DNA of 64,000 nucleotides from an uncultured Candidatus Peribacteria bacterium (GCA_964544625.1 CAZJBQ010000002.1:49462-113461); one strand, 5' to 3'; numbered from the stretch's first letter, positions 2,241-50,257 are shown. The notes: generated by a model from the sequence alone, not told the origin. Made by a program: numbers and translations.

Positions 2241-4004
2241 ATGCACAAAGGCGAGTTTATATCACCAGATGTACTATTCGAAGGGAAAGAAGTACCGCTC
2301 CCATATATTCCTATCCATATTATTCATTTACTTGCTCGCAGGGCCCCAAATATAATATATGGATTTGATGGATCAAAGAGAAAACAACTCGATCAATACA
2401 TAGCGGGCTTGCGAGATATCTGAGCAACAAATAAACTCCTCCGCAGGATGCTCGTTGGCTTTACAGATTGAATATCAGTGAAATGTAGGCGAATTGAAAT
2501 GTCTCTCATAGATTTAATAGGGGGAGAAGCAGTTAATGCATTACAAACGAGCAAAGGACTTGCGAGAAACGATCTCCTCAAACAACTGCAAGGAATGATT
2601 TTCTCAGAAAAAAGTTCTTTTGCACAGTCAGGTATATCGATTTCATGTGTTGTGGAGGACGTAGGGCCAAATAATGTTTTTCATACTCTTGATCAACTGA
2701 AAAAGAGTAGGGTAAGTCTCATAGTGGCGACAGTTGTTGATATATTTGAGCATGAATTCCTCTCCGAACTCATACAATGAGTCAAGGGGAAAGTAGGTCG
2801 CTTACTTGATCTGTGAGAACCTGTGTTGCGAACGTTTCTAGAAAATGATCAAAGTGTTGGAGCGTATGTGTCTCCCGGGGATAATGCATGGAACCAGCGT
2901 GAGATAATGATAGGGGATAAAAAGCAGAGGTATAAGGATCCGTGTGTTGATAACTCAGGCGCACTTATTGTACCACTGTGCCCAGAGGAAATTTATGATG
3001 GAGAAAATCATGAATGGAAAAATGCAGACAGAGTCAAGGTGTACAATATCGAAGAGGCAGTTGTGCGGGATATATTGGATGGGAGATCACGCAAAGGTCT
3101 CAAACACAGAACATCAATGCTTGTGCCACAGACTGACGTCATTAAACCTGGGCAAACTAGAATTCTTGAGATACCACTTGATGCAGGTCCTTATAATGCT
3201 AATATCGGTGTTGTATGTGTGTGACCAGATGGGAAGGAGATAGATGTCGTACATTTTCCCGCGACGTATCTCGATGCTGTACGTTCGTTTCCAGACGGTG
3301 AGAATCGTATACAGGTAGAAATCAAAAATGTTGGGAGTAAAGATATACAACTCAAAGATATTCATTTCCGAGTCAAATTTTATAAAACTGACACAAAAAC
3401 TCGTAAAAAATGGGAGCTCAGAAAAGCTCTCCAGTATGCAGAATTCAAATGATATTATGCTCTCGAACACCTCATATATACCAAAGTTTTGAAAGGTACA
3501 GAAGGGTGAAATCTAGAGGATTGCATGCTTGCGCTGGGAGATCTCAGTAATATGGATAATTTTTGGTGAGATGATCAAGGGGTATTATTTTATCAGCAAG
3601 AGGTTAATGGACACATAGAGGATAGATTCGAAAGGGTGGCATACTCATGATCAGAAGGGGTGAAATTGCAATCAATTACGGCATGAGAAGTCCGAGAATA
3701 TGGTACGACATATCAGAGAGAGCTCATACGAGTTCTGCAAAACGCTTGTTTAGTCGGGAGGGAAAAGAGGGTTATATTTGTCTGTCGTAATGATATAAAT
3801 CATGAGAGCCTGATGGCTATTACCAAGACAGGAAGCGTGACTGATATACTGTCTGTGCCAGGCAAGCGCACTGCATTTGAACCAAATAATGACTTACTGA
3901 AGATGTGTAAACATGAAAAAATACAACTGACTTCTATTAGTGTTGTAGAGCCGGGTACAGCTGATCGAGATGCTACGTATAATCTCCTAGGTGCTCAGCG
4001 ATAA
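2241..4004 (+). CDS. hypothetical protein (587 aa)
   Basis: Track ORFs 2241, 2478, 2823 and 3813 are all in frame 0 and are joined by TGA codons with no TAA/TAG between them. -10 TATAAA lies 6 nt before the ATG. Confidence 0.6.
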
Positions 4005-5869: not shown

Positions 5870-6625
5870 CTATGCACTGATACGAGTTCCGCCACGGATA
5901 GTACGTCCCATGATATGTTGGTAAACAGTTGAAGTAACCCCATCACAAATATGGGTCACACCACCTGTTTTTGCGAATTCTCTCCCGACTGCAAGTTTTG
6001 AGCGCATGCCTCCTGTTCATGTCTGTGATTTTTCTCCACAAACTGTTCCCAGCCAACTCTCTGTTATAGTGTCTGACGAAAGTTCTTTGATTCGTGTTGA
6101 CGCATCATCTTTGTCGGAGTAGACACCATTTGTATTGGTGATGAGCACGATATCCGAAGCAGAGAGATATCGTGCTACGAGGAGAGCATTTTTATCATTA
6201 TCAGCGCCTCTTCCGAGCGCTTGCATTTCTGCCGTTGAGAGAGCATCGTTTTCATTGATAATTGGGAGTACTCCAGCCTCGAGAATATCGTTGACTGTGC
6301 GTACAAATTGAATTCGATGACTCTCTATATCTTCGAGAGTAGCATGAGTTGGGAGGATTTGTGCTGTGACGATACCACGCTTTCGAAATTTCTCTGCATA
6401 GCGTGCCATCAGTATTGGTTGACCGACACTCGCGAGTATTTGGTTATTTTTCTCTCATCAGAGTATCTCACGGCCACATCCGACTGCTCCAGAAGAAATG
6501 AGAATAACAGAGATTTTTTGTTTCATGAGTTGGGCGATATCTGCGATCATTTTTTTCACCTTTTCGCTGGTGTGAAAATTCGCGAGAGATTCTGTGCCGA
6601 CTTTCACGATAATTGTTTTGTCCAT
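5870..6625 (-). CDS. proB: glutamate 5-kinase (no PUA domain)
   Basis: IIVKVGT..., GADNDKNALLVA, and G(TGA)TGGMRSKL motifs. Track ORF 6017-6409 extended in frame on both sides. Confidence 0.75.
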
Positions 6626-14717: not shown

Positions 14718-14945
14718 TTGCATTCCACTTTCTATCTATATAATCATTATATCAGCCCTGACTCCTGCTATCACAGGACGTGTCCTCCGAAGCCTTGGCG
14801 AAGGATGGACGAGCTGAGGGAAGAAATCGCAAGAAAGTAGACCCCTCCGGACACTGCACGTGACGCAGATAAATCAAGTACCGTTTTCGGTGGTAACTTC
14901 CTCACAAGAGGACCGAAACACACAGTTTATTTTGTGTGTTTTTTT
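14718..14945 (+). promoter_or_regulatory. promoter plus T-box-like leader of ileS
   Basis: TTGCAT-15-TATAAT. Antiterminator-like fold: helix UUUCGG/CCGAAA (14885-90/14913-18), 7-nt bulge UGGUAAC (14891-97), helix UCCUC/GAGGA. Competing hairpin AAACACACA/UGUGUGUUU plus a U-run ends at the ATG. Confidence 0.55.
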
Positions 14946-17900
14946 ATGCCCTTCTCTCTCCCCAAATGAAAACCCGAGTTCTCAAAACTCGAAGAATCTA
15001 TCCTCCAGTATTGGAAGGAAAATAAGACCTTTGAAAAATCAGTCGAATCCAGGCCGGCTGAAAATCCGTATCGATTCTATGATGGTCCTCCATTTATCAC
15101 GGGTACTCCGCATTATGGGAGCTTGCTATCTTCGATAATCAAGGATGTTGTTCCTCGCTATCAGACCATGCTCGGGAAGCGCGTCGAACGTGTCTGGGGA
15201 TGGGATTGTCATGGACTTCCAATTGAGCAAAAAGTACAGAAAAAATTATGACTTGAATCAAATAAAGAAATCGAAGAATCAGCAGGTGGAATCCAGGGAT
15301 TTATCGATGAATGTTACGCCTACACTCGCGATACTTCAGCAGAGTGGAGCTGGTATATCGATCATATCGGTCGATGGGTGGATATGGAGGGTGCGTACCG
15401 CACGATGGATCAGAACTATATGGAGTCGGTCATGTGGGTCTTCAAACAAATCTGGGAGAAAGGATATATCTACGAAGGGAAGCGTGTTTCGTGGTATTCT
15501 TGGAAGCTCTCGACCCCGATTTCAAACTTTGAAATCGCGATGGATGACAGCTATCAGGATGTCCAGGATCCAGCGATTACGGTGAAATTTCCACTCACAC
15601 AAGATACCTCAAAACAAGATGAGGTGCAGGGGTGAAAATTTGAATATACAGAGGATGGATATCTCCGATATGTCCTCGCAGTCATCCGAAATGCTGATGG
15701 TGAAGTTCTCATGCTCCAAAATAAAAAACACTGAAATACATGGCAATGTCCTGGTGGAAAAATTGACGCAGGAGAAACGGCAGAAACGGCTCTCAAAAGA
15801 GAAATAAAAGAAGAACTCTGAGTCGAGATAACCATCAGAAAGCATCTCTGAAATCGAAAAGTTTTCACTCAGCGTACTTTGTGGCAAGGGGAATATTTCG
15901 AAGTTGAGTTATTATCAAATCCAACTATTCAAGAACCAGAAAAACACGCCCAGATGCAGTGGATGAAAATCATAGACGATCCAGAACTCGTTCATGGTTA
16001 CTATCTCCAGTATGGTGAACATATTATTACCGAACAGCTTGGTCGGATGTATGATGCTCTCGCACTTCGAGCAATAGAGAAAAAATTACCTGAACTCAAA
16101 AGCATCTCATTGCTCGCATGGACAACAACCCCGTGGACTATACCGATGCATATGGCGATTGCGGTGCACAATGACCTCACGTATGTGTTAGTGCAAATTG
16201 AAGATGAAGCCTATTTGGTCGCGAAAAACCGTCTTGAGACCGTCATGAAAGGCAAAAATTTTACTGTTCTTACTGAATATCCTGGTTCATTCTTGGTTGG
16301 TAAATATTATCGTCCACCATTTGATTATTACGTCGGAAAAATCGATGAGAGAAATTTCCGTGTCTATCACGCTGACTTCGTCACTGACACTGATGGTACT
16401 GGTATCGCTCACGAAGCTCCAGAATTTGGTGATGTGGATTTTCAGCTTGCGAAGCAAGAGGGGATTTTCATCACGTCTGCAATCGATGAAGCAGGGAAGT
16501 ATACGGCACAAGTCCCAGACTATCAAGGCACGCTCTATATCGATGCTATCGACCCTATCACGGAACGACTCAAAGCAGAAGGAAAACTCTTCAAAAAAGA
16601 AGGTATCACTCACCGCGTCCCATACTGTCCTCGCAGCAATACGCCACTCATGCAGAAAGCCCAAAAGTCGTGGTTTATCGATATTCAGAGAATCAAATCT
16701 GAGCTCATCGCACAGAATGAAAATATCAACTGGTTTCCAGATCACTTTAAGCATGGACGATTTCTCAAATCTCTCGAATCTGCTCCAGATTGGTGCATCT
16801 CTCGCTCTCGTTTTTGGGGAACGCCGATGCCTGTATGGCAAAGTGCAGACGGTTCTGAGCGTGTCGTCATCGATTCTCGCGAAGAATTGTATCAGAGAAA
16901 TAAACCACTTGGTCAGATAACAAAGATTATTTTTGTGAGACATGCGGAGAGTGAAGCGAATGTAGCAAAAATGTATAATGATAATGGAACGTCTCCTCTG
17001 ACAAAGAAAGGACATGAGCAGGCAAAAAAACTCGCTCAAAGTCTTGAACAAGTTGATGTTGTACTTTGTTCACCATTTTTGAGAACAACGCAAACAGCAG
17101 AACCAATTGCACAAAAATTCGGACTTGATATTGAGGTTCGAGAATATCTCCATGAAACCAATCATGGCACACTAGCTGATCAAACACAGACAAAAACGGT
17201 ACTGGAAGAAAGAAAAAAATTCTTCGAAAATCATGACCATAAGTTTGGTGGAACAGGCGAATCATTCAATGATCTTATTGCTCGTGGAGAGGTTCTCCGA
17301 CAAGAAATTCTCGCAAAATATCCTGGGAAAACAGTCGTGGTCGTGAGCCACGGACATCCAGTCAAGGCATTTCTCGTCGCATGTGGAGCAAAAAGACCAA
17401 GTAATACTGAAAATGCAAAACCATACGTACTCTATCTCGATAACAACACAGGCAAGGAAATCAATCTCCACCGTCCATATATTGATCGGATTTATGTCCC
17501 ATGAAAATCTTCTTTCACTCCGAAAAAAGTGCTCGGTATTCATGGATGGACTTCTGCTGGCATCCAAAATCCGCAAGGAAAATGGTTGCCAATTCAAGAA
17601 AAGCTCAAAGCTGCATGAGTGCAATTTGATGTACCAGATTTTGATAAAAATAAGGAAACGAAATATTCACTTTGGAAAGAGAAGCTCGATACTCTGGATG
17701 TAGCAAGTTATGATACCATTATGGCAACGAGCTTTGGTTGTCCTGTTATCATGCAGTACCTCTGTGAGAGAAATATTAAATTAAAACGTCTTGTGTTGGT
17801 TGCTCCAAGTGGTCTCAAAGGGAATGAGTACCTCGAAAAAGTGATTCCAGAAATGACGGAAGATGTTGAGAAACTTCGATGACTCGTGGAAGAAATAATA

Positions 17901-19646
17901 GTCCCCCATAGTGAAGACGATGACTCGACCAGCGCACGATTTGAATACGGTCAATCACTCGCAAAAAGAATAGGTGCAATATTCCTCCCTATCAATGGTG
18001 TAGGTCATAAATTTGGAGGTTGGAGTATTGATTTTCTTTCTTCTCTTATCCAACACGGAGCCCCACTCCGTCGCGTCTCCGAAGTCCTTGATGTGTGGAT
18101 GGATAGTGCTTCGATGCCGTATGCACAAGTGCATTATCCATTTGAGAATCAAGCGAAAATGGAAGCGAGTTTCCCAGCCGATTTTATCGCAGAATACACA
18201 GGGCAGATTCGTGCATGGTTCTACGTGATGCACGCGATTGGCGTGATGGTAAAATGATCGCCAGCCTTCAAAAATGTCGCTGTCACATGAGTCATCAATG
18301 GAACTGATGGACGCAAGATGAGTAAATCCTACGGAAACTATCCTGATCCTCGTGAGACGATTCAGAAATACGGTGCTGACGCGATTCGCTTCTACCTCAT
18401 GGGCGGTACGCTGATGAAGGGTGAAGATATGGCATTTTCAGAAGCAGGTATTCAAGAATCAATCAAACGAGTCCTCCTTCCGCTCTGGAATTCCTACACT
18501 TTCTTTGCGACCTACGCAAATATCGATGAATGGGAATTCACGGATTATTCAACACCAAAGACACACGAACTCGATACATGGATTATTTCTCGTCTCCATA
18601 CATTGATTCAGGACACGAGAGTCTCAATGGATGCCTACGATCTCCAGAAAACGTGTGATGCTATCATGGTCTTCCTTGATGGTCTCAATAACTGGTATAT
18701 CCGGCGCAATCGCAGACGTTTCTGGAGAAGCGAACTCGATGCAGACAAAAAAAGTGCGTACGAAACACTCCATGAAGCCCTCGTCACAATGACGAAACTC
18801 CTCGCACCTATCTGTCCATTTATCACTGAGCATCTCTATCAGAATCTCATGAATACGACGGAATCACTGCATCTCACTGACGTCCCAGCAGAAAGCAGAG
18901 AGCACCTCCACCTCGCCGCGAAACAGAAAATGACACACCTCCAAAATCTCACCAATCTCGGTCTCGCTATTCGTGGTCGTGAGAAACTCCGCGTTCGACA
19001 GCCACTTCGAGCAGCGACGATTACCCTCGAACTCGATGAGAGCGCACGAGAGACACTCGCTGAAGAATTGAACGTCAAGGAAATACACAGTGTGAAAGAT
19101 GTCTCGGACTATGTCACCATTACCTATTCTCCTGATGCGAAAAAAATCGGAGCGACTGAGAGAAAACAATGGATGAAAACCATTATTGCTGATGCAAAAG
19201 CAGGGAAGGGGAACCTAACTTCAGAGGGGACTCTTGAACTCACGGTCCCAGAAGCACCAGACGGAAAAGTGGTTCTCGCTGCGGATGAATTTGAAGCGGT
19301 CTATACACCAAAAGAAGGTTCAACCATTGCTTTTGCTGGTAGCGCAGGATACGTCATCGGTCTCGATACAACCCTCGATGAAGCACTTACCTTTGAGGGC
19401 TATGCTCGTGATATGATTCGCGGTATTCAGGACGCTCGAAAAGAACTCGGATTCCAGGTCACTGATAGACTTCAACTCGCACTGACATCAGACAATGAAA
19501 TGCTTGGAAAAATTCTCGCCGTCCATCAAGGTATGATTGAAAAAGAAACTCTCACAACTGTCGAACTTCAGACTTCAAATCCCGAAAATACGAGAGAAGT
19601 CGAAATCGATGAAGGCTTTATGATTCATCTCAGTCTTACAAAATAA
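14946..19646 (+). CDS. ileS: isoleucyl-tRNA synthetase with three inserted enzyme domains (1566 aa)
   Basis: PHYGS (HIGH-type), WDCHGLP, WTTTPWT, LHRPYID and KMSKS motifs. All track fragments (15378, 15879, 17619, 17886, 18318) are in frame 0, joined by eleven TGA. Confidence 0.95.
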
Positions 19647-19650
19647 ATTT

Positions 19651-20265
19651 ATGTCTCTCATTATCACGGTCGGCCTTCTTCATCTCCTGGCTCTCATCAG
19701 TCCAGGTCCAGATTTTATCCTCTGTGCACGCAATAGTCTCGCGTATTCACGAAAGATGGGACTCTGGACGGCTCTCGGATTTAGTGGAGGTATTGCTGTC
19801 CATATGACCTACTGTATCGCGGGTATTGCTGTGATTATCTCTCAGTCTATCATGCTCTTCAATATCATGAAGTGGCTCGGAGCGATCTATCTCATCTATA
19901 TCGGTATCCAGTCATGGAGAGCGAAACATACGACGATACATATCGATGCTCATAAACATAAGCATACAATTTCGGCATTTCATGCCATCAAAATGGGTTT
20001 TCTCACGAATGCTCTTAATCCCAAAGCAACGCTCTTTTTTCTGAGCGCATTTACTCTCATCATCTCTCCATCGACACCGATGTGGATACAGCTCGCGATA
20101 GGCATCTGGTGTGTCGTACAGACATTTCTCTGGTTTGCTTTTGTTGCAATAGTTCTGACGATTCCTCGAGTTCGTCGCGTGTTTGAGCGATTTCAGGGAT
20201 TCTTCAATAAATTTTTCTGAGGAGCGCTCGTAGTTCTCGGTATCAAAGTAGCGACGACGGATTAA
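19651..20265 (+). CDS. LysE/RhtB family amino-acid exporter
   Basis: N-terminal ISPGPDF motif and a six-TM pattern. Extends past TGA 20218 to TAA 20263. Confidence 0.85.
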
Positions 20266-21988: not shown

Positions 21989-22852
21989 ATGAAACCAAAT
22001 GAGCAATTAGATCTGCCACTACAAGACCTACCAAGAACTGATATTCAACGGTGGTCTCGTCTCATACCAACTCATATTCAAAGTAGGTTGCAATTACATG
22101 GGTGGGCACAATTACCCATTGAGCAAATACATACTGAACTCAAAATCCATGCTGGATATCCACAGGCGGAAGATATGATTATGCGACTTTGTTTATTAGC
22201 AGATCGATATGATGATGAACACAACGTGCGTTTGGGGGAACTTTTTAAATCTCAGGATTGGTATCCTCCCGAGCCAACAGTAAAATTAAATCCTGGTTTT
22301 TTTCAAAAACTGGAGCAGTTATTCCAGAGACTCTGATGTGTGCATATCTACGATATATTCATTGTTTGAAATTCGAGTGTTATCCTTGATCATGAACAGG
22401 ATGAAAGTGTACAACAATTATGGGATTATCTACATATCTATGCAGGAAAGGCATTACGAACCAGTATACAACAAGACCAAGAGGAAACTGATGAAAATGC
22501 TACTTCTGACTATGATGATTTACGAAGCCGTATAGAGGAATTAACAGCCCAAATCAATGTACGTAATTCTTCTGTGCGACCTACCGTAGGACATACATAC
22601 TACCGAGACACTCATACTCACGAGACGCACAATGACAATCGCCAGTGAATTGGCTTTTATAAGATGATGACAATCGCTCTTATTGCGTCGATTATTGGTG
22701 CAACTGCCGTACAACGAGAATGGCTGCAACTCGGCAAAATCAAGCGAGATTTTTACGCTCTTATCAGCATGTTTCAAGGTAAGGAGACACCCAAGGCCAT
22801 CCAAGTTACTCCCGAACAAATGAGAGAATTAGAAGCACAGGATAAACAATAG
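21989..22852 (+). CDS. hypothetical protein (287 aa), C-terminal TM helix
   Basis: Track ORFs 21956 and 22664 share frame 2. The gap between them has only TGA codons. Confidence 0.5.
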
Positions 22853-22860
22853 TCATTTCC

Positions 22861-23835
22861 ATGGAAGATTTTGATTTACATGATAGACCTCATGTTTCTT
22901 TTGAAAAACCAGCGGATGATATCCTAGATTATGAATTATTCTTCCCAGAGACGTTTGTATTTTTACGAAAACACGGGATGGAGTGTTTGTCATTTGACGA
23001 ATTAGAACATCGTTGGAATGCTCGTCGTCACTTCCCAGCGTATCAGCAACATCAGCGTTTCTTTTTATCCTTACCATCGCTCAGAACGGCATCAGAATAC
23101 TACAGTACTCACACAGAAAACTATACGCAAGATATAGTACCATATACCAGGTTTTTCTCTCAAGAATTTCTCTGATGGCTCGATGAGCGATGATATATAA
23201 AACTCTCATTTGAGGATCTGCAGAAGAGATGGGAACTCTACCATTCTTTTGACCAACAGATGAAAAAGTATACAAAGGAATTTAAAATGCTTCGGTACAT
23301 CGAACTCCTGCGGCCATTACAGGGTGATGTGAACAATCTCCTGATGACAAATCTCCTCGATCATCCAGTCTGGTGACTGACTCCAGCTCAACGTGAAGCA
23401 TTTGGGCAAGCGTGTGAAAATATCGGTTGGCAGAGGTTATTTGATGCATTTGTTATTTTCTGAGGAACACCATTGCATGTATCAGATATCTGTGAAATGC
23501 CAGCATTGATACCTTTTTGAGATCAGATAGATCGGATTTTCCATTGTGCTCATGAATCACTCAAGTGTGCTATAGATGAAAAAACACTTCCTGAGGGTGA
23601 CTGGTTCGGCCCACGTATTATGTTTGCTGAAAATAGTATACGAAAACATCATGATATTCCGAGCTCTACGGTGATGATAGTGGCATGAATTATAGTATTT
23701 CAGATAGTATGAATATTGGCCGCACTTGATGCTACATCGAGACACCCTCGTGTGATATATCCAGGAGTGATAGATGATATACGAGCTCGCTGTGCAGAAA
23801 TATATGCTGGCATTTCTGGTATTTTTCCCGAATAA
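22861..23835 (+). CDS. hypothetical protein (324 aa)
   Basis: Frame 1 is open through seven TGA to TAA 23833. Checked line by line. Confidence 0.55.
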
Positions 23836-23837
23836 AT

Positions 23838-23978
23838 TTGATTTTCCATATAGACGCTTACAATATCTCTATGACATCTCGTCACAACATGATTATTATT
23901 ATCGCTTCGCATCACGCAGAGGGATAATATTTTCTTGTCATCATATTTTCTAACCTCTGCATCCGCAGAGGTTTTTTT
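23838..23978 (+). promoter_or_regulatory. isoleucine leader-peptide attenuator of ilvA
   Basis: TTGATT-15-TACAAT, then 6 nt, then ATG 23871. Leader encodes MTSRHNMIIIIASHHAEG (23871-23927). GCAGAGG at 23916-22 duplicates the terminator 3' arm (23965-71). The 5' arm CCTCTGC is at 23954-60. U7 at 23972-78. Confidence 0.7.
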
Positions 23979-23990
23979 ATTTTCTTTTTT

Positions 23991-25193
23991 ATGAAAACCA
24001 TCACACGTCCCGAGATAGAGAGGGCACAATCAGTTCTCCGAGAACATCGCATAGGAAATACTCCACTCACATCTCTTCAAAATCTCGTATCGTACCGACA
24101 AGGTACTGTACTTGGGAAGCGCGAAGATGAAAATGAGATAGGTTCGTACAAGATACGATGAGCGCTCTATGCTATCTCTCAACTCTCGCCTGAGCAGAAA
24201 AAAAGAGGAGTTGTCTGTGCATCGGCTGGCAATCATGCTCAGTGAGTTGCCTATGCTTGCAAACTCATGTGAATCCAATGAGTTATCTATATGCCCCGTA
24301 CGACGGACGCTACGAAAGTACGTCGAGTAAAGGAATTCGGTTGAGCCTCTGTTGAGGTTCGACTCGTATGAGATTATTTTGATCAGGCACAACAGGCCGC
24401 AAAGAAATATCAACGAGAAAAACGAGCCACTTTTGTCCATCCATTTGATGACCGTGACGTCATCATAGGGCAATCAACAGTGACGGCAGAAATACTTCAT
24501 GAAAATCCAAAAATACAAAATCTCATCTATCCTGTTGGTGGTGGTGGACTCATGACTGGAGGTATCATGGCACGTGATGCTCTCGGGAGTAGTGCTCTTA
24601 TTATCGGTGTAGAGCCAGCAGGAGCGCCGAGTATGACGCATGCCCTGGAACAATGAAAAAATTCTGCACTCAGTCACGTCAATAGATTTGTTGGATGAGC
24701 CGCTGTCGCTCAGGTCGGGAAAAATACATTTGATATTGTTCGAAAATCATGATCACAGATAGCCCTCGTTCCAGAGTGACGTGTGGCTCAGACAATGATT
24801 GATTTTCATCATGCTGGTGAAGTAGTCGAACCTGCGGGAGCACTCTGACTGGCAGGGGTTCATGTTCTTTCAGGCAAGCTTCGCGGGAGTGTCACCACTG
24901 TAGTATCTGGTCGATGCGTCTCTCCCAGTATGTGGACTGAAGTCCAGGGTTTAGCTGAGAAATTTAGTGGCAGAAAAATGATACTTGATATCATATTCCC
25001 CGAGAGAGAGGGCGCTCTTTCTTCTCTCCTCAAAGTACTTCCAAGGGGAATAAATATTGTTGCCTTTAATTATCAGAAACATTCTGGTCCATCGAGTCCA
25101 GCTCGGATAGAATTTGAGGGTGAGCCCGCCTCTCTTCATCGGGTACCATTTTTGATAAAAAAGGCTGGTTTTGCCTATTCTGAAGCGGAATAA
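23991..25193 (+). CDS. ilvA: threonine dehydratase (threonine ammonia-lyase) with C-terminal regulatory domain
   Basis: SYKIRG(TGA)A lysine motif, ASAGNHAQG(TGA)VA and GGGGL loop. 400 aa in one frame. Confidence 0.9.
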
Positions 25194-25433: not shown

Positions 25434-28268
25434 ATGACTCTGGACTCCATCCGCAAGCGCAATAATGAGCTTGTTCCCTTTGACCGCTCTCGCATCGAAA
25501 GTGCTATTGAGCAGGCTTGTATCGCTATTGGTTATAACGATATAGCCTTTATACCCCAGATTACGACAGAGATCATTCTCGCTCTCCAGACTCGATTCGG
25601 AGGAACAGAATATGTCCCGAGTGTGGAGGATATCCAGGATTCAGTAGAGCTTCATCTCATGCGCTCTGGTCGATTCGAAGTAGCAAAAGAATACATCACG
25701 TACCGTCAGAAGCGTATCGAAGAGAGAAATGAAATCGTCGAAGAAAAAATCGAAAAACAAGAACTCAAGGTCCAGAAACGTGATGGAAAAGTAGAAGCAT
25801 TTGACATGGGCAAAGTTCGTCGTGTTTTCGAACTCGCTGCCAACGGTCATCCAGCGATTGATCTCGATCTCCTCGTGAGCAACTTCCACACCAATATATT
25901 TGATGGTATCCACTCTCGAGATATCGCTCAAGCGACTATCATGACAGCGAAGAGTTATATCGAGCGTGATCCGCAGTACTCATACCTCGCTGCCAAGCTC
26001 TTCCTCATGAACTACTACAAGGACCTCATCGGTTCTGCAGATATGAAAAATTCTGGATTTACCAAGTGTTATCATGAAGCATTCAAATACAACCTCAAAT
26101 TCCTGGTAGAAACAGACCATCTCTCTGCTGATCTCATGTCATATGACCTCGATAAACTCGCAGAAGCAATTGATCCAACCCGAGACAATATCCTCACCTA
26201 CCTCTCAGTTCAGAATCTCTACGACCGATACTTTATCCACCATGAGAAAAACCGTCGTGAACTCCCACAAGCATTCTGGATGCGTGTCGCTATGGGTCTC
26301 GCAAAACGAGAAACAGATAAAGAAAAATGGGCAATCCAATTCTATCATCAGCTCTCACAACTCCACTTCGTGAGCTCAACTCCGACCCTCTTCAACTCAG
26401 GGACAAAGCGAAGTCAGCTCTCATCATGCTACCTCTCAACAGTTGATGATGATCTCCACTCAATTTTCAAAATCATTGCCGATGATGCTCAGCTCAGTAA
26501 ATGGGCAGGAGGTCTCGGAAACGACTGGACCAATATCCGTGCGACAGGTTCAAAAATCAAGGGAACAAATGGTGAATCTCAGGGTGTTATCCCATTCCTC
26601 AAGATCGCAAACGATACTGCTGTAGCAGTCAATCAGGGTGGTAAACGAAAAGGTGCGCTCTGTGCGTACATCGAGTGTTGGCATCTTGATTTCCCAGATT
26701 TCTCAGAACTCCGCAAAAATACTGGTGATGAGCGTCGTCGTACTCACGATATGAATACGGCTGCGTGGATCCCTGATCTTTTCATGAAACGTGTACAGGA
26801 AGACGGTAATTGGACACTCTTCTCTCCATCAGATGTTCCAGACCTTCACCACATCTACGGTTCTGCTTTCGAACGCAAATACGCTGAATACGAGAAAATG
26901 ACTCACAATGGTCAAATCACACACTTCAAGGTCATGAAAGCAAAAGACCTCTGGAGAAAAATCCTCTCTATGCTCTTCGAGACGGGTCACCCATGGATTA
27001 CATTCAAGGACCCATGCAATGTCCGCTCTCCTCAAGACCACGCAGGTGTCATCCACAACTCAAATCTCTGTACAGAAATCACACTCAATACTTCAGCAGA
27101 AGAGACAGCCGTGTGTAACCTCGGTTCAGTCAATCTCGCTCGTCATATGAAGGATGGAAAACTCGATCATACTATGCTCGCAGAAACAGTAAAAACTGGT
27201 ATGCGTATGCTCGATAATGTCGTCGATATCAATTTCTACCCAACAAAAGAAGCAGAAACTTCAAACATGCGTCACCGACCCGTCGGTCTCGGTATCATGG
27301 GTCTCGCAGATGCTCTCTACATGCTCGATATCGATTTCGACAGTGAAGAAGCTGTGAAATACAACGATGAAATGATGGAGGCTATCAGCTACTACGCTAT
27401 CCTCGGTAGCTCTGAGCTCGCAAAAGAACGTGGTGCCTATTCATCTTTCCCAGGTTCAAAATGGGATCGCGGAATTCTCCCTCTCGATACACTCTCTCTC
27501 CTCGACGCTGAGCGTGGTGAACGTGTCGATGTGAATCGTAACTGTACTCTCGACTGGACTCCAGTACGCGAATCTATCAAGCAGTACGGTATGAGAAACT
27601 CTAACTGTATGGCTATCGCTCCAACAGCAACTATCTCAAATATCGTTGGTGTCTACCCATGTATCGAACCGATCTACAAAAATCTCTACGTGAAATCAAA
27701 TCTCTCAGGAGAATTCACTGTCATCAATGACTACCTCGTCGCTGACCTCCAAAAGGCTGGCCTCTGGGACGCTCAGATGGTCGCAGAACTCAAGTTCCAC
27801 GATGGTTCTATCCAGAAGATTGACCGCATCCCAGCTCGTCTCCGCGCGAAGTACAAAGAAGTCTTTGAAATCTCACCAGAATGGGTGATCAAAGCTGCTG
27901 CTGTCCGTGGTAAATGGATCGACCAGTCTCAGTCAGTTAATATCTTCATAAAAGGTGCTTCAGGAAAAGTCCTCAACGATACCTATATGATGGCATGGAA
28001 GATGGGTCTTAAAACCACTTACTACCTCCGAACTCTCGGTGCTACGGCTATCGAAAAATCAACCTCTGCGTCTGCTGCTCTCGCTGGTTCTCACGTTTCA
28101 AGTGGTACAACAGCAACTGTCGAAGCGGTCGGTGTCACAGCTCCATCAGCACCAGCAGTTCCATCAGGAGAACTCGAGATGTCTGCAAAACCAAAAAAGG
28201 AATACACTGAAGCCGAAAAGGTCATGTGTTCTATCCTCAATGGGCCCAGCTGTGAAGCTTGTCAGTAA
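25434..28268 (+). CDS. nrdA: class I ribonucleotide reductase alpha subunit with N-terminal ATP-cone(s)
   Basis: Intact 944-aa ORF. ATP-cone N-terminus, NLCTEI active-site motif, C-terminal CEAC pair. Confidence 0.95.
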   Translation: MTLDSIRKRNNELVPFDRSRIESAIEQACIAIGYNDIAFIPQITTEIILALQTRFGGTEYVPSVEDIQDSVELHLMRSGRFEVAKEYITYRQKRIEERNEIVEEKIEKQELKVQKRDGKVEAFDMGKVRRVFELAANGHPAIDLDLLVSNFHTNIFDGIHSRDIAQATIMTAKSYIERDPQYSYLAAKLFLMNYYKDLIGSADMKNSGFTKCYHEAFKYNLKFLVETDHLSADLMSYDLDKLAEAIDPTRDNILTYLSVQNLYDRYFIHHEKNRRELPQAFWMRVAMGLAKRETDKEKWAIQFYHQLSQLHFVSSTPTLFNSGTKRSQLSSCYLSTVDDDLHSIFKIIADDAQLSKWAGGLGNDWTNIRATGSKIKGTNGESQGVIPFLKIANDTAVAVNQGGKRKGALCAYIECWHLDFPDFSELRKNTGDERRRTHDMNTAAWIPDLFMKRVQEDGNWTLFSPSDVPDLHHIYGSAFERKYAEYEKMTHNGQITHFKVMKAKDLWRKILSMLFETGHPWITFKDPCNVRSPQDHAGVIHNSNLCTEITLNTSAEETAVCNLGSVNLARHMKDGKLDHTMLAETVKTGMRMLDNVVDINFYPTKEAETSNMRHRPVGLGIMGLADALYMLDIDFDSEEAVKYNDEMMEAISYYAILGSSELAKERGAYSSFPGSKWDRGILPLDTLSLLDAERGERVDVNRNCTLDWTPVRESIKQYGMRNSNCMAIAPTATISNIVGVYPCIEPIYKNLYVKSNLSGEFTVINDYLVADLQKAGLWDAQMVAELKFHDGSIQKIDRIPARLRAKYKEVFEISPEWVIKAAAVRGKWIDQSQSVNIFIKGASGKVLNDTYMMAWKMGLKTTYYLRTLGATAIEKSTSASAALAGSHVSSGTTATVEAVGVTAPSAPAVPSGELEMSAKPKKEYTEAEKVMCSILNGPSCEACQ

Positions 28269-32605: not shown

Positions 32606-33307
32606 ATGAACATCCAAATAATTCCCGCACGAAATCGCTATACCGCTCACCATGAGTGGCTCGAGAGTAAACATCTCTTTTCTTTCGCAGACTATTATGA
32701 TCCAGCGAATGTGCATTTCGGTGCACTTCGTGTCTTCAACGATGACATCATAGCAGATCATCAAGGCTTCGGTATGCATCCACACAGCAATATGGAAATT
32801 ATTACTTTGGTTCTCGCAGGAGCAATCTCTCATGAAGATTCTTATGGAGGAAAAGCAACCGTTGGTGCGGGTGGCGCGCAGGTGATGTCAGCGGGCTCTG
32901 GACTTCGTCACAGTGAAATCAACAAAGGGGATGAAGCAGTCCATCTCTATCAGATATGGATTATGCCTCGCGAAGAAAATATTTCACCACGACACGACGA
33001 GCGAGATTTTTCTCAGATGCCTCATAATCATCTGGTTCCTATTGCTTCAGGATTTGACCACGATGCCCTCCAGATTCACACTGATGCCGTTATCTATCGT
33101 GGTATTTTTGACGAAGAAACCACCTGGACACACATAGCACACGCTGGTACAGGAAACGTCTTTATCTATGTCACAAATGGGAGTGTAGATCTAGCCACAG
33201 GAGAAACGCTCGAAGCCGGTGATCAGGCACGCATCTCTGATGTAGAAACCTTAGAAATTAATTTCTCTGCTGGTGCAGAAGTGGTAGTGATAGATGTTTG
33301 TGAATAG
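32606..33307 (+). CDS. pirin family protein
   Basis: Intact 233-aa ORF. HPHSNMEIITLVLAG cupin metal motif. Confidence 0.9.
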   Translation: MNIQIIPARNRYTAHHEWLESKHLFSFADYYDPANVHFGALRVFNDDIIADHQGFGMHPHSNMEIITLVLAGAISHEDSYGGKATVGAGGAQVMSAGSGLRHSEINKGDEAVHLYQIWIMPREENISPRHDERDFSQMPHNHLVPIASGFDHDALQIHTDAVIYRGIFDEETTWTHIAHAGTGNVFIYVTNGSVDLATGETLEAGDQARISDVETLEINFSAGAEVVVIDVCE

Positions 33308-34368: not shown

Positions 34369-35373
34369 ATGGCTGCTGAAAAGAAGCTCATCTGTGCTGT
34401 CGGCACAGATCCAAATAAGATACTTCCCATGAAGTATAAGTGGGCACGTCAACACTACAAAAATGGTGTCGCAAACAACTGGACTCCCGAAGAAATCCCA
34501 ATGCAAAAGGATGTAGAACAGTGGAAGGCAAAAGATGTCCTCACCGACAATGAGCGTCATCTCATCATGTGGAATCTCGGATTCTTCTCGACAGCCGAGA
34601 GCCTCACAGCCAACAATATCGTCCTCGCGATGTATCGTCATGTCACTAATCCCGAGTGTCGTCAGTATATGCTCCGTCAGGCCTATGAAGAAGCAGTTCA
34701 TACAGATACTTTTGTATACTGCTGTGATTCATTGTCTCTCGATCCAGAAGAAGTTTTTGCAGCTTATGAGACCATCCCTTCTATCAAAGCAAAAGACGAT
34801 TTCGTCGTCAATCTCACGAAATCAATTCTTGATCCAACATTTGAGATTAATACTACAGCTGATAAGCAAGCGTTTCTCCTCGATGTCATAGGATTTAATA
34901 TGATCATGGAGGGTATATTTTTCTATGCTGGTTTTGCGATGATGCTCCAGCTCATGCGAAACAACAAAATGAAGGGTATCGGTGAGCAATTCCAGTATAT
35001 CCTCCGCGATGAATCTATCCACATCGCCTACGGTCGTGACCTCATCAATGGTATCGTCGCAGAAAATCCAGAAGTTTGGACAGAAGAGTTTAAGGCAAAA
35101 GTCATCGACCTCTTCAAACAAGCAACATCACATGAGCTCGCCTACGTCGAGGATTGTCTCCCATACGGCGTCCTCGGTCTCAATGGTGACGCAGTGAAAC
35201 AGTACGTCCGACATATCGTCGATCGACGTTGTGAGATGATCAATCTCCCGATTCTTCATGGTGATGAAAATCCATTTCCATGGATGAGCGAAATCATGGA
35301 TCTGCGCAAAGAGAAAAATTTCTTTGAAACAAAAGTCACAGAATATCAGACAGCCGGCAATCTCGAGTGGTAA
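34369..35373 (+). CDS. nrdB: class I ribonucleotide reductase beta subunit
   Basis: Intact 334-aa ORF with ferritin-like diiron motifs (EEAVH..., ...DESIH...). Confidence 0.95.
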   Translation: MAAEKKLICAVGTDPNKILPMKYKWARQHYKNGVANNWTPEEIPMQKDVEQWKAKDVLTDNERHLIMWNLGFFSTAESLTANNIVLAMYRHVTNPECRQYMLRQAYEEAVHTDTFVYCCDSLSLDPEEVFAAYETIPSIKAKDDFVVNLTKSILDPTFEINTTADKQAFLLDVIGFNMIMEGIFFYAGFAMMLQLMRNNKMKGIGEQFQYILRDESIHIAYGRDLINGIVAENPEVWTEEFKAKVIDLFKQATSHELAYVEDCLPYGVLGLNGDAVKQYVRHIVDRRCEMINLPILHGDENPFPWMSEIMDLRKEKNFFETKVTEYQTAGNLEW

Positions 35374-45004: not shown

Positions 45005-45152
45005 TTGACAAAAATTTCATTCGTCTAAAATTATCTCTATGCGTCAAACCAGTTCACTTCTTCTCAGCCTTCTTCTTTCCCACCGGGAGAGTTAGTTTGC
45101 TGCGAAGAAAAACCACGCACTTTCCACTCTCCCCGAAACGGGAGAGTTTTTT
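45005..45152 (+). promoter_or_regulatory. leucine leader-peptide attenuator of leuA
   Basis: TTGACA-15-TAAAAT, then 7 nt, then ATG 45039. Leader encodes MRQTSSLLLSLLLSHRES (45039-45095). GGGAGAG at 45085-91 duplicates the terminator 3' arm (45140-46). The 5' arm CTCTCCC is at 45127-33. U6 follows. Confidence 0.7.
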
Positions 45153-45170: not shown

Positions 45171-46952
45171 ATGAGCAATGTAATGCACGAATTGGATATC
45201 CACTATGAAGAATGGTGAGAAATAATGGCACAAGTGATATCTTGAGAAAAACCCCTCGGTTTTCTACCCAAAAAGGAAAGTACTACGACTGGTTACAAAA
45301 TTTATAAGCCAGAAAAAGTTATTATCAACGAAGTTGGACCACGTGAATCGGACCAAGCAGGCGGATGATTCCAGCCCTGGAACAAAAAAGATATGATAGG
45401 CTCAGCTATAAGAGCCGGTATTCCAGCTGTAGAGGTGGCATTTGCGGCAGGAGTAGACATGCAGACTATTGACTGGGCCGTATCTGAATTTGGCCGCGAA
45501 AATACACGTTTATCAGCTCTAACAGGATTCTTCCCACAAGCTATAAAAGAAGGAGCGGGGAAATTGAACAAAGCAAAGAATGGAGGAGTACATATTTTTT
45601 ATCCTACCCAAATACACCATATACAGGCTATGTTGGACAAAGACGGTAAGACACCAGTGAGAGATTTACAAGACCAGGTGCTCAAAATGATTGAGAATAA
45701 TGTCTGAATAGCACGCGATAATATCGGAAATGTCCAATTCTCACCGGAGATTGCTACTGATACTGATCCAGTTTTTCTCCTCGAATCTGTGAGAAAGGCT
45801 ATCGAGAGCGGAGCTACTATTATCAATATGCCAGATACACGAGGAGGAACGCCTACTTGGTATATGGAGAAATTATTTCATTTTATGAGTTGGGGTACAC
45901 AAGATTTACGAGAAAAACATGATTTTATATTTTCTTGTCATAATCATAATGATACAGGCATGGCTATTGCGAATAGTATTGCTGCTATTCGATGATGAGC
46001 TACACAAGTAGAGTCCACATTTTCTGGTGTTGGGGAATGAGCAGGCAATGCTCCAACAGAGCAGATAATAAATACTTTGAGACAGAATGGCTATGATATC
46101 GGAAAAATAGATAACAAGAAAGCATGAAGGATTGCTGAATATGTCAGAGCTGTTGTCTATGGTCAAGTGGTAGTCCCATATGGTCCCTGATCTGATGCAG
46201 ATGGTGCTGGAGTCCACAAGGATCGTTGGCATAAATATGTCGCATGGTGTCGAAAAAATAATCTTCATCCCAATCCTGATTTTTATAGAGCGGGCGCAAG
46301 TAGGCTCAATTTTGAAGCAGATAGTGATAATGTAGCGATAGGGAGGTTGGGCGGTGCAGGACAAGTTCTTCACGCTCTCAAGTCTCACGGTGTATTTCGC
46401 CCTACAAAAAAATGACCTACAGTAGGAAGGATACATACTACTTTTTGTGGTGACGATAAGGGAAAAATTGGCACCACACAAGAAACCAAAGTAGCCTATG
46501 ATTCAAACGTATTTGCTGAATATCTCCGTAATTCAAGGAGAATATCACAAGAAAATATATCTTTTGAGAATAATTCTGTCACTATTTCGGCTGTTATCAA
46601 TGGTAAAAATATAGTTATATCTGGGCCCATGAGTACCGAATCTGGTCCTATCCCGACAATTATTTGAGCTATTAATAGATTTTTAGGTAAAGAAATAATC
46701 AAACTTCACGTTGAGCCTATTTATAAACCAATATTCACACCCGATGTTGCTCAACAACAATTTCCAGATATTCATCAAAACGGAACTCATCACAGTGATG
46801 TCGAAGATGCTCCTCTCTGGTCTGAGGTTGTTGTCAGTGTTAACGGTATTAACAAAAAATCTCGAGTAAGATGACAAAATATTGATGAAACATTTATTCG
46901 TGCTATATTTGAAGCGTGCCTGGATGTGATATGTCAAAAAACAAAAGAATAG
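45171..46952 (+). CDS. leuA: 2-isopropylmalate synthase (LeuA/CimA family) with C-terminal regulatory domain
   Basis: MPDTRGG, CHNHNDTGMAIAN and GVGEG(TGA)AGNA motifs. Three track fragments in frame 0. Confidence 0.85.
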
Positions 46953-47980: not shown

Positions 47981-49225
47981 ATGTCACAGAGTTTATCACT
48001 ACCGCGAGTCCTCAAAGTCTGAGGAATACAAGTAGCCCGTATCTCTGATACAAGACCTCTTATTCAACGCCTCAAACAAGATGGTCCACTATCAGTTATT
48101 CTTTCTGCTCCAAATACGGATCAATTTCGTACAACCAATGTCCTCATAGAAGCCGCTTCTTCGCTTGCTGCTTGAGATGTGCAAAAATCGAGAGAACTCC
48201 TCCTCTCTGTACAGGATTTTGTTCTCAATACTGTTTGTCTCCCCCTTCATGGGGAAGCTATTTTTACAAAAATACAGAGAGATGTGTCTGGGCTTTTCCA
48301 GCAATATTTCACAGATATGGATTTTTATTTACGTAAAAGGTCTCCAACGGCTCGACTCTATACTTCTGCTCCAGAAGAATCCAATGATTTTGTTGCATCT
48401 GTATGGAAAAAACCAACACACAATGGGCGTGGTGGATCTGGGAAACTTCAAACAGTGATACCATTTATCGAACTCGGTGAAAATATATCCGCGATTATCT
48501 ATGCACATCTGACTGGCGGAATACCGATCACGAGTCGATCATGGATGAGGGATGAAATTGCAGACGTTCATAAAAGAGTAAGAGAGAGTCAAAATCTCAT
48601 TATTTCATGAGCCCTCCGTATGAATGCTCGAGACAAAATGCTTGTTCGCTTCTGACGTGGATATACAGATGCAAATGCGTGACGCTTGGCCTTTGGCGCA
48701 GGAGCTGAATTGCTCGTTCATAAAGAATATCCTGTCTGTACTGCCGATCCAAGAATCGTAAATGGTTCGAGTCGACCAATACCCGAAGCCTCTATGGCAA
48801 CACTTCGTGCCAGTCTCCATCCTCTTGTTGGTGCTCAGTTTCTCAATCCTCATGTTTTCGCTGACGGAGAACCAGTGGATATTCAGGTTGGCGATTTTGC
48901 TTCGGAGAGGATAACGCGTGTTTCACGGAGAGATATACCCGAAGCACTCCCACTTATCCAAAAAGGTCCACGAGTACGGAGAGCTCAGGAGTGAATGAAT
49001 TTCTGAGATATATCTCTCTCAGTCAACGGATGAGGAGATGAATGTGTTATATCAGTCGTGGATCATTCTGCACGAAGTATAGAACGTGCTAGAGATATCC
49101 AGAGCATTCTTTGATCTAGAGGTGTTATTGTTTCACTCAATGAACGTGTTGCATCAGTATTGGTCCCATACGACCAGGCAAACGACATTGTTCGACAGCT
49201 TCATCAGAATATGTGCGAGACATAA
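47981..49225 (+). CDS. lysC: aspartate kinase with C-terminal ACT region
   Basis: VLKVG(TGA)G, SAPNT..TN and TADPRIV motifs. Three same-frame fragments. Confidence 0.85.
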
Positions 49226-49246: not shown

Positions 49247-50257
49247 ATGAAAATCGGAATTGTATGAGCGACAGGTGCAGTAGGACAAGAATTACTTCCA
49301 CTGCTTAAAAAAAGAGATTTTCCTGTCTGAGAATTGAGAGTATTTGGTTCAGAAAACTCAGCGGGAAAAACAATAGAAACGCCTTATGGACCAAGAGTTA
49401 TTCAGCTTCTTTCTGAAGAGGGAATACAGTGATTGGATGCGATGTTTTTTGCAGCGAGTGCTGAAGTATCTCGTGTATGGTGTCTTCGTGCTGCAGAAAA
49501 ATGAATTCTCTGCGTGGATAAATCGAGTGCATTTCGGAGTGATCCAAATATCCCACTTGTTGTGCCAGAAGTAAATGGCCACAGTATCCGTGAGGGTGAC
49601 CTGATTATCTCTAGTCCGAATTGTACAGCCACCATCGGAGCGTTGGCACTATGACCTATTCATCAGGCTTTGTGACTACGACGAGTGTTTGCATCGACCT
49701 ATCAAGCAGCGAGCGGTGCTGGACAACCAGCGATGGAAGAGCTTATCGCAGCCACGCGTGCAAAGCTGGCAGGAGAAAATTTCACACCACAACAATTCGA
49801 TCATAATTTAGCCCTTAATCTCTTCCCACACATTGGTACTTTTCTCGAAGATGGATATACGGATGAAGAAATGAAGTTCACTAATGAACTTCGTCGGATT
49901 TTAGGGTTACCACACCTCCCAATAGATTGTACCTCTGTGCGTGTACCTATTTCTCGAGCTCACAGTGAAGATATTACGGTCGAAACTGAACAGCCTTTTG
50001 TCGTGAAGCAGGTCCAAGAGCTTTTATCACGGTCAGCTGGCGTAGACCTCGTTGATGAACCAGGAAAAAAACGGTATCCTATGCCTTCGTGAGCAACAGG
50101 AAAGTATAATGTGGAAGTGGGGCGAGTACGTCAGAGTTTTTCTTTTGATGGACACGGTGGTCGATTCTTCGTATCTGGTGATCAGCTCCTCAAGGGTGCA
50201 GCACTCAATGGACTCCAAATACTCGAACATGTATTGAAACAGAGACGAAAAGCCTAA
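49247..50257 (+). CDS. asd: aspartate-semialdehyde dehydrogenase
   Basis: IGIVG(TGA)ATGAVG, SPNCTA active-site Cys and [10 protein letters not shown]. Confidence 0.9.

Follow-up and report, generated by a model that had tools for sequence, protein, structure and literature searches.

The stretch of DNA analysed here, referred to as the window, is 64,000 nucleotides (nt) long and is deposited as a sequence of an uncultured Candidatus Peribacteria bacterium (GCA_964544625.1, CAZJBQ010000002.1:49462-113461). It hosts an ilvA gene, predicted to encode a threonine ammonia-lyase (threonine dehydratase). The 155-nt gap preceding ilvA contains an open reading frame (ORF) of 18 codons plus a TAA stop (23871..23927, + strand), encoding the peptide MTSRHNMIIIIASHHAEG. 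In all likelihood, as judged from its sequence and from that of its relatives, the element is a ribosome-mediated (leader-peptide) transcription attenuator, which would tie ilvA expression to charged tRNA-Ile. A preliminary description of this DNA had proposed an isoleucine leader controlling threonine dehydratase; the proposal gains support, as the elements it names occur where stated and are conserved among relatives. Six distinct leader variants have been compared, one from the window and five from the loci denominated L001, L005, L009, L010 and L011. The features of the region, in window coordinates, are the following.

23838..23843, + strand: TTGATT, -35-like hexamer of the putative leader promoter; TTGAWT is found at an invariant position in 6/6 variants, 15 nt before the -10-like hexamer
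23859..23864, + strand: TACAAT, -10-like hexamer; TACAAT, TACACT or TATAAT precedes the leader ATG by exactly 6 nt in 6/6 variants
23871, + strand: ATG of the leader ORF, read from the sequence and re-located by script
23887..23938, + strand: hairpin 1:2, predicted anti-antiterminator and possible pause hairpin, found in the minimum-energy fold of the window and of five relatives
23892..23903, + strand: ATT ATT ATT ATC, the four putative regulatory Ile codons (codons 8-11), invariant in 6/6 variants
23916..23922, + strand: region 2, GCAGAGG, predicted antiterminator strand over codons 16-18, perfect complement of 23954-60, in 6/6 variants
23925-27, + strand: TAA stop of the leader ORF, preceded by GCA GAG GGA
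23952..23960, + strand: region 3, (AA)CCUCUGC, predicted terminator 5' arm, common to antiterminator and terminator
23961-64, + strand: AUCC, terminator loop of 4 nt
23965..23973, + strand: region 4, GCAGAGG(UU), predicted terminator 3' arm, with the GCAGAGG core at 23965-71
23972..23978, + strand: T7, U-tract of the predicted intrinsic terminator; 7 or 8 T in every variant
23991..25193, + strand: ilvA, threonine ammonia-lyase of 400 amino acids (aa) by Pfam and NCBIfam matches, with 11 in-frame TGA

The coordinates previously given for the four consecutive Ile codons, for the ATG and for the GCA GAG GGA TAA end of the leader are all correct. A script confirmed that GCAGAGG occurs twice, at 23916-22 and 23965-71, that both copies are complementary to CCTCTGC at 23954-60, and that the U7 tract ends 12 nt before the ilvA ATG at 23991. 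Region 2 ends 2 nt 5' of the leader stop codon. A 9-pair stem (23952-60 with 23965-73), closed by the 4-nt loop and followed by the T-run, was found by a terminator scan. The composite motif GCAGAGG-N25-45-CCTCTGC-N3-6-GCAGAGGTTTTT is present once in the window, and was never found in 100 shuffles. Runs of four Ile-type triplets are not rare alone (11 in the window on both strands, versus about 2.3 expected), and the case rests therefore on the combination of the elements and on their conservation. The leader peptide has no Val, and Leu is found in one variant only. A longer leader of 29 codons could begin at TTG 23838 and has an open frame in every variant, but the extension conserves only two promoter-like hexamers; ATG 23871 is therefore preferred as leader start.

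The RNA spanning 23871-23985 folds at -31.8 kcal/mol, versus -13.8 +/- 2.6 kcal/mol for 200 shuffled sequences (z = -7.0). The minimum-energy fold includes hairpin 1:2, unmentioned in the preliminary description. Its core is formed by TATTATC (23897-903), located inside the Ile codons, and GATAATA (23923-29), located across the stop codon; further pairs involve 23905-10 with 23916-21 on the inner side, and 23887-92 with 23933-38 on the outer side. The outer stem is longer in L005 (ACAACA with UGUUGU). Owing to hairpin 1:2, the element has a full four-region layout. The energies of the alternative folds, a comparison already envisaged for this region, have been computed. The full transcript folds as 1:2 plus 3:4, and the nascent RNA extending to region 3, hairpin 1:2 included, folds at -17.4 kcal/mol. 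The 2:3 helix alone is worth -11.9 kcal/mol (-12.6 with a few extra pairs), the 3:4 hairpin -12.4 kcal/mol with 7 base pairs and -14.4 with 9. With region 1 covered and region 4 still absent, 2:3 becomes the fold of minimum energy; a ribosome positioned on the stop codon leaves only 3:4. Between the end of the last Ile codon (23903) and the start of region 2 (23916) there are 12 nt, and both this length and the 2-nt distance from region 2 to the stop codon are invariant in 6/6 variants. E. coli ribosomes have a footprint of about 12-15 nt downstream of the A/P site, and a footprint of this size is assumed here. An ORF with cognate codons, a terminator, an exclusive antiterminator, a 1:2 hairpin, and a spacing suited to both stalling and termination of the ribosome, which together characterize attenuators, are thus all recognizable in the predicted structures.

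According to the proposed mechanism, transcription would start from TTGATT-N15-TACAAT, at or next to ATG 23871, and a ribosome would begin translating the leader of 18 codons before RNA polymerase has finished transcribing it. With abundant Ile-tRNA, the ribosome would reach the TAA at 23925-27 and cover region 2. Regions 3 and 4 would then pair, and the 3:4 hairpin with the U7 tract would end transcription at about 23978, which is 12 nt short of ilvA. With little Ile-tRNA, the ribosome would stall on codons 8-11 (23892-23903), covering region 1 and leaving region 2 free. The latter would pair with region 3 before region 4 is made, no terminator would form, and the polymerase would enter ilvA. 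If the leader is not translated, hairpin 1:2 would sequester region 2, and termination would occur by default.

The same leader might sense Ile-tRNA with an output other than intrinsic termination, such as mRNA stability, Rho-type polarity or initiation of ilvA translation; if initiation were the target, the ilvA transcript would always be full length. Intrinsic termination in this lineage is indeed an assumption, and ilvA, which has no Shine-Dalgarno sequence and starts 12 nt after the U-run, could be influenced at initiation by local structure. The 3:4 hairpin followed by U7-8 is however a textbook intrinsic terminator, and similar hairpins follow other genes in the window. Moreover, 18 nt separate the end of the hairpin from the ilvA ATG, which is not sequestered. 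An output of this kind is considered very unlikely.

Relatives of the ilvA locus were obtained from one GTDB genome (L001) and from three protein clusters, P0001-P0003, derived from public assemblies (loci L005-L012). The scan of genome contigs returned a single close locus, L001, along with an unrelated Prochlorococcus ilvA. Nothing close was found by scanning metagenome contigs, a scan made with N-terminal peptide patterns only. Protein searches returned only the three close clusters, the next-best IlvA proteins being Bacteroidota enzymes about 45% identical. The IlvA proteins of the six variants are 54-78% identical. Conservation upstream of ilvA, which had been indicated as a check of the attenuator, was found: the 18-codon ATG...TAA ORF, the ATT ATT ATT ATC run at codons 8-11, the GCAGAGG over codons 16-18, the CCTCTGC and GCAGAGG arms separated by a 4-nt loop, and the run of 7-8 T are kept in 6/6 variants. 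The distance from the T-run to the ilvA ATG ranges from 11 to 13 nt.

Variation is found around these elements. The peptide changes outside the Ile run (H5Q, M7N, ASHH to TSPS). Six consecutive bases differ near the 5' end in L011, a difference which one deletion plus one insertion would explain, and the ORF length is kept. The terminator loop varies (ATCC, ATCT, TCAC) and the arms do not. In region 3 the CCTCTGC core (23954-60) is invariant, and the two flanking bases are AA, CG or CA. The leader is better conserved than ilvA itself: nucleotide identity between the window and L005 is 83% in the leader and 64% in ilvA, and the corresponding figures for L001 and L009 are 95% and 76-77%. The region between ilvA and the downstream ribonucleotide reductase (RNR) gene is 51% identical. 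In the comparison with L005, the most distant variant, no changes (0/45) were found in Ile codons, region 2 and stop, region 3, region 4 and U-run, versus 22/64 elsewhere in the leader (Fisher p = 1.4e-6, for a partition chosen after the fact). Over the six variants, 97% of the cells of hairpin 1:2 are paired, and changes are seen from U-A to U-G (two) and from G-C to C-G (one); in the 2:3 helix, 100% of the cells are paired and none vary. The gene 5' of the leader varies by locus, and encodes a 324-aa unknown protein, an S-methyltransferase, or a 166-aa unknown protein. The leader therefore travels with ilvA, and belongs to it.

A second element of the same design is found in the window. Twelve strong terminator hairpins were identified, and only two of them feature a copy of the 3' arm at most 90 nt upstream: the one in the ilvA leader, and one at 45085-45147. 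Each comes after a short ORF in which one amino acid is abundant. The features of the second element are listed below.

45005-45152, + strand: Leu-leader element, made of an ORF with six Leu codons, an arm repeat and a predicted terminator before a LeuA-like gene
45005-10 and 45026-31, + strand: promoter-like TTGACA and TAAAAT, separated by N15, with 7 nt between TAAAAT and ATG 45039
45039-45095, + strand: leader ORF of 18 codons, MRQTSSLLLSLLLSHRES, with six Leu codons and a TAG stop at 45093-95
45085-92, + strand: arm copy GGGAGAGT, located at the stop codon and repeated at 45140-47 as predicted terminator 3' arm
45126-33, + strand: predicted terminator 5' arm, ACTCTCCC

The terminator is followed by a T-run and, 18 nt later, by the ATG (45171) of the LeuA-like gene. 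The gene (45171-46952, + strand) encodes a 593-aa HMGL-like protein, for which the best NCBIfam models are 2-isopropylmalate synthases, with scores far below the cut-offs. The fold of the Leu element has z = -5.3, and Leu codons pair with the arm copy. The two leaders share the length of 18 codons, the N15 spacing, an ATCTCT before the ATG, an arm repeat that overlaps the final codons, and a terminator with its U-run shortly before the gene. They differ in the codons, six for Leu versus four for Ile, and in the arms, which in the Leu element are GGGAGAGT with ACTCTCCC. The presence of an Ile leader before an enzyme of the isoleucine pathway, and of a Leu leader before an enzyme resembling one of the leucine pathway, is hard to explain unless both are functional attenuators.

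TTGATT and TACAAT are plausibly a promoter, as hexamers and distances are conserved and the sequence of the 15-nt spacer varies among variants. They were missed by the consensus promoter scan because this allows spacers of 16-18 nt only. A -10-like hexamer 6 nt before the ATG implies that transcription may start at or next to the ATG. In the 34 window genes checked, no Shine-Dalgarno sequence was found at the usual distance, the only trace being one AAGG that precedes one gene by 9 nt. In 7/34 cases the start codon has a strong -10-like hexamer 5-8 nt before it, with a peak at 6 nt. The gene starts checked include those at 7603, 21989, 46988 and 51038. The gene starting at 21989 is preceded by TTGACA-N15-CATAAT-N6-ATG, and the N15 geometry is common to both leaders. 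We infer that the organism often uses leaderless mRNAs. The lack of Shine-Dalgarno sequences and the -10-like hexamers close to ATGs fit a leaderless leader ORF, which would probably be translated from the 5' end of its transcript.

The promoter could also lie within the leader ORF. According to this explanation, ATGACA (23871-76) and TATTAT (23894-99), separated by 17 nt, would direct a start near 23906, no leader would be translated, and the choice between 2:3 and 3:4 would be set by a protein, a tRNA or a metabolite. This pair of hexamers is the best consensus match in the region (10/12), and both hexamers are found in most variants. The -10 match is however an automatic by-product of the ATT ATT codons, and the -35 degrades to ATGAAT in L011. 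No variant has lost the ATG, the TAA or the length of 18 codons, the Leu leader combines an ORF and an arm repeat in the same way without any promoter-like sequence embedded in it, and no Rfam family matches the region. In addition, the conserved TTGAWT-N15-TAnAnT is located upstream at a fixed distance from the ATG. A promoter embedded in the ORF is extremely unlikely.

Alternatively, the hairpin and the U-run may merely terminate an upstream unit, either the gene for the 324-aa protein, which ends at 23835, or one for a small peptide, and ilvA may be transcribed leaderless from a weak promoter of its own, TATTTT (23978-83); the Ile run and the upstream copy of GCAGAGG would then have no regulatory role. 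Leaderless-type promoters seem to be common in the genome, and TATTTT is a 4-of-6 match to a -10 hexamer 7 nt before the ilvA ATG, with TAnnnT-like hexamers in several relatives. Several other genes in the window, moreover, have a terminator-like T-run just before the ATG. On the other hand, no -35-like element was seen by inspection at a spacing of 15 or 17 nt, and TATTTT is under the 5-of-6 threshold met by the other candidate leaderless promoters, in a T-rich sequence which matches easily. Simple termination of an upstream unit leaves unexplained the strict conservation of the ORF, of the Ile codons and of the third arm copy, the association of the leader with ilvA despite the changing upstream gene, and the Leu element before the LeuA-like gene. 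A weak independent promoter could also coexist with attenuation. This explanation is regarded as very unlikely.

Read with table 11, the sequence past 23991 is split into short ORFs; if stops are restricted to TAA and TAG, it makes one ORF of 400 codons. The product matches Pfam PALP (1e-66) and, weakly, Thr_dehydrat_C. The best NCBIfam models, PRK08639 and THD1, are both short-form IlvA families and score below their trusted cut-offs. On these matches, the product is accepted as a short-form threonine ammonia-lyase with one regulatory domain. At 5/11 TGA positions Gly is found in 57-60 of 60 homologs, and at 2 more it is the commonest residue; none of the positions aligns with Trp. One TGA falls on the Gly of GSYKIRG, the motif surrounding the PLP lysine. 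The alignment of TGA positions with Gly indicates that TGA is read as Gly, as in genetic code 25. The ilvA gene is intact in all six loci (400-403 aa). In public protein sets these genes are carried with TGA translated as Trp, or truncated. ORF lists made with table 11 were unusable, and a greedy choice of the longest ORFs under code 25 gave spurious antisense ORFs; genes were consequently chosen by hand.

The valyl-tRNA synthetase ValS, translated with code 25, is 51-57% identical to proteins of named Candidatus Gracilibacteria, Altimarinota or Patescibacteria, and 75-96% identical to metagenome proteins. By protein similarity, ValS places the genome in the Gracilibacteria, within the candidate phyla radiation. 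The G+C content of the window is 42%, and no tRNA gene is present in it. The gene adjoining ilvA on the 3' side (25434-28268, + strand) encodes an ATP-cone RNR of 944 aa and has no in-frame TGA, the count of TGA regardless of frame being 54. It is 86% identical at the nucleotide level to its L005 counterpart, versus 64% for ilvA. The ORFs at 32606-33307 and 34369-35373 similarly lack in-frame TGA.

The ilvA leader resembles the enterobacterial leaders trpL, hisL, ilvL (of ilvGMEDA) and ivbL (of ilvBN) in having a short ORF with a run of cognate codons, and four regions of which 1:2 plus 3:4 would lead to termination and 2:3 to read-through. It also resembles them in the position of the stop codon, which would let a terminating ribosome mask region 2, and in that of the terminator, just before the first biosynthetic gene. 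It differs in the Ile-only codons, in the single ilvA target followed by an unrelated RNR gene, in the lack of a Shine-Dalgarno sequence and the probably leaderless start, in the code-25 Gracilibacterium host, and in the lack of sequence similarity. E. coli ilv leaders have 32 codons and are multivalent for Ile, Val and Leu; a leader of that type, multivalent, of about 32 codons and heading a multigene operon, is not what is found before ilvA. The likeness to enterobacterial ilv leaders formerly noted holds for the logic, as the geometry fits the classical ribosome-stalling model. As to the much smaller format attributed to the element, it is shorter than the enterobacterial ilv leaders; its eighteen codons are compact and not unusually few among known leaders, the hisL, pheL and trpL leaders having 14-16 codons.

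No Rfam family reached the gathering score in searches of the ilvA region, of the whole window, and of narrow windows at all three leaders, the third being the one located before ileS. Among sub-threshold matches, the only amino-acid operon leader family is Phe_leader (16.7 bits, threshold 55); L10_leader scored 14.8 bits (threshold 44), and the higher scores are small RNA matches driven by the terminator. T-box riboswitches, characterized by a stem I bearing a specifier loop and by a conserved T-box sequence which forms a bulged antiterminator, are the usual tRNA-sensing control of ilv and ileS genes in Firmicutes. Rfam found no T-box in the ilvA leader, the RNA of which, about 108 nt, is taken up entirely by the ORF and its three helices, and the element is not a T-box.

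Unannotated leader ORFs were also found before ilvE in Bacteroidota ilvE-D-B-N-C-A operons, at positions 2918-3040 of locus L013 (MKNLVIISLVIISVIRAAKGDR) and 3015-3125 of locus L015 (MKSQALNIIVIIQCP). In L013 only an Ile/Val/Leu-rich leader ORF and a terminator were seen. The L015 leader (MKSQALNIIVIIQCP) shares the compact design: it has Ile-rich codons, the terminator 3' arm GGAAAGG is copied at the stop codon, and the copy is followed by a GAUAAU complementary to the Ile codons, and then by the terminator and a U-run. Bacteroidota leaders differ in that Ile, Val and Leu codons are mixed, and in their location before a whole operon in which ilvA is the last gene; the leader described here lies directly before an isolated ilvA, and there is no detectable nucleotide similarity. 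Leaders of the L015 type are the nearest design found in the sequences compared. The Bacteroidota IlvA are the nearest outside relatives, and the gene, and perhaps the regulatory idea, may therefore stem from there. Candidate attenuators in Bacteroidetes were reportedly predicted by Vitreschak and coworkers in 2004.

Leaderless leader peptides are documented in Deinococcus deserti, where 14 have been predicted (PMC4007540). As proposed here, their start codon is at the 5' end of the transcript with a -10 few nt upstream, and their targets are amino-acid biosynthesis or tRNA synthetase genes. The starts were mapped experimentally in D. deserti, whereas here they are deduced from promoter geometry, and both phylum and genetic code differ (PMC4007540). 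Leaders are similarly known before ilvB and trp genes in Actinobacteria; in Streptomyces ilvB, regulation was unaffected by mutation of the regulatory codons (PMC1262725), and the architecture of an attenuator does not therefore prove function alone.

Several other observations weigh against attenuation. The comparison is limited to six variants, all of one narrow clade. Covariation support is close to nil, as there is no variation in the key arms: 26 pairs include one compensatory pair and three changes on one side only, a result equalled by 79/500 shuffles. Covariation says nothing for or against the structure. A strand serving two exclusive helices is expected to be frozen, which is an argument and not a test. 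With all four regions present, the terminator outcompetes the antiterminator in stability, and read-through must therefore be kinetic; the terminator is likewise more stable than the antiterminator in the E. coli trp attenuator. The 15-nt promoter spacer is short by E. coli standards, and the weak TATTTT before ilvA is a possible independent basal promoter. Transcription start, U-tract termination and isoleucine response are all inferred. Finally, no other ilv gene was found, either in the window or within about 10-20 kb around ilvA in relatives; the genes sought and missing are ilvB, ilvN, ilvC, ilvD and ilvE, as well as leuB, leuC and leuD. Gracilibacteria have been described as limited in amino-acid synthesis (PMC11452946).

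Other genes of amino-acid metabolism are found in the window. An aspartokinase-like ORF, weakly matched (47981-49225, + strand), precedes a gene for aspartate-semialdehyde dehydrogenase (49247-50257, + strand), and a glutamate-5-kinase-like gene is located at 5870-6625 on the - strand. The isoleucyl-tRNA synthetase gene ileS (14934-19646, + strand) encodes a fusion of about 1570 aa. In the IleS homologs of L005 and L009, the tRNA-synt_1 halves are separated by inserted NUDIX, His_Phos_1 and Ser_hydrolase domains. The synteny of ileS with ilvA is conserved: IleS is followed by a LysE-type exporter (19651-20265 in the window), by variable genes, and by leader-ilvA in the window, L001 and L009-L011; no LysE was seen within the L005 stretch. 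The RNR gene is found 3' of ilvA in the window, L001, L005 and L009, and the L010-L012 sequences end just past ilvA.

The ileS gene has a leader of its own (14739-14945, + strand) of about 200 nt. It ends in a predicted terminator, formed by AAACACACA (14916-24) and TGTGTGTTT (14933-41), with a T-run right before ATG 14946. The leader is T-box-like in some respects. In the hairpin at 14763-78, the loop CUAUCA holds the Ile codon AUC followed by A, and GGUGGUAAC at 14889-97 resembles the T-box core. A bulged antiterminator-like fold is formed by UUUCGG (14885-90) and CCGAAA (14913-18), with a UGGU-containing bulge and an inner UCCUC-ACAA-GAGGA hairpin. No Rfam match to a T-box was found in this leader, even at E up to 10. 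An Ile leader peptide before ileS was considered and rejected, because no start codon lies in frame with the run ATA ATC ATT ATA (14740-51), which overlaps a TATAAT box.

Leader-peptide attenuation requires close coupling of transcription and translation. It has been mostly documented in Proteobacteria, Actinobacteria and some Firmicutes (PMC2965389), and no report of it was found in literature searches on leader peptides in the candidate phyla radiation and on threonine dehydratase or isoleucine biosynthesis in Gracilibacteria. The proposed mechanism is a known one, in a bacterial group where it was not expected. What distinguishes the case is the code-25 host from the candidate phyla radiation, the probable leaderless start, the isolated target gene, and the Leu twin in the same window. 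A broader hypothesis, tentative and on balance doubtful, is that leaderless Ile and Leu attenuators, to which the T-box-like ileS element may add, induce an orphan IlvA and a LeuA-like synthase when charged tRNA is low, in a host-dependent Gracilibacterium without the remaining pathway of branched-chain amino acids. If so, IlvA and the LeuA-like enzyme would be kept for purposes other than complete de novo synthesis, for example to make 2-oxo acids finished by, or exchanged with, the host, or in a shortened salvage route, and ribosome-coupled attenuation would be a main form of amino-acid sensing in bacteria that belong to the candidate phyla radiation.

For annotation, the elements provide a simple signature by which others could be sought in unannotated genomes: a short ORF, a copy of the terminator 3' arm at its stop codon, and then the terminator. 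The ilvA gene itself is readable only with TGA as Gly. The two attenuators, one for Ile and one for Leu, would show that the minimal cells of this code-25 Gracilibacterium monitor the charging of individual tRNAs, that leaderless translation can drive a switch of this kind, and that regulated first-step enzymes are kept from pathways thought to be absent.

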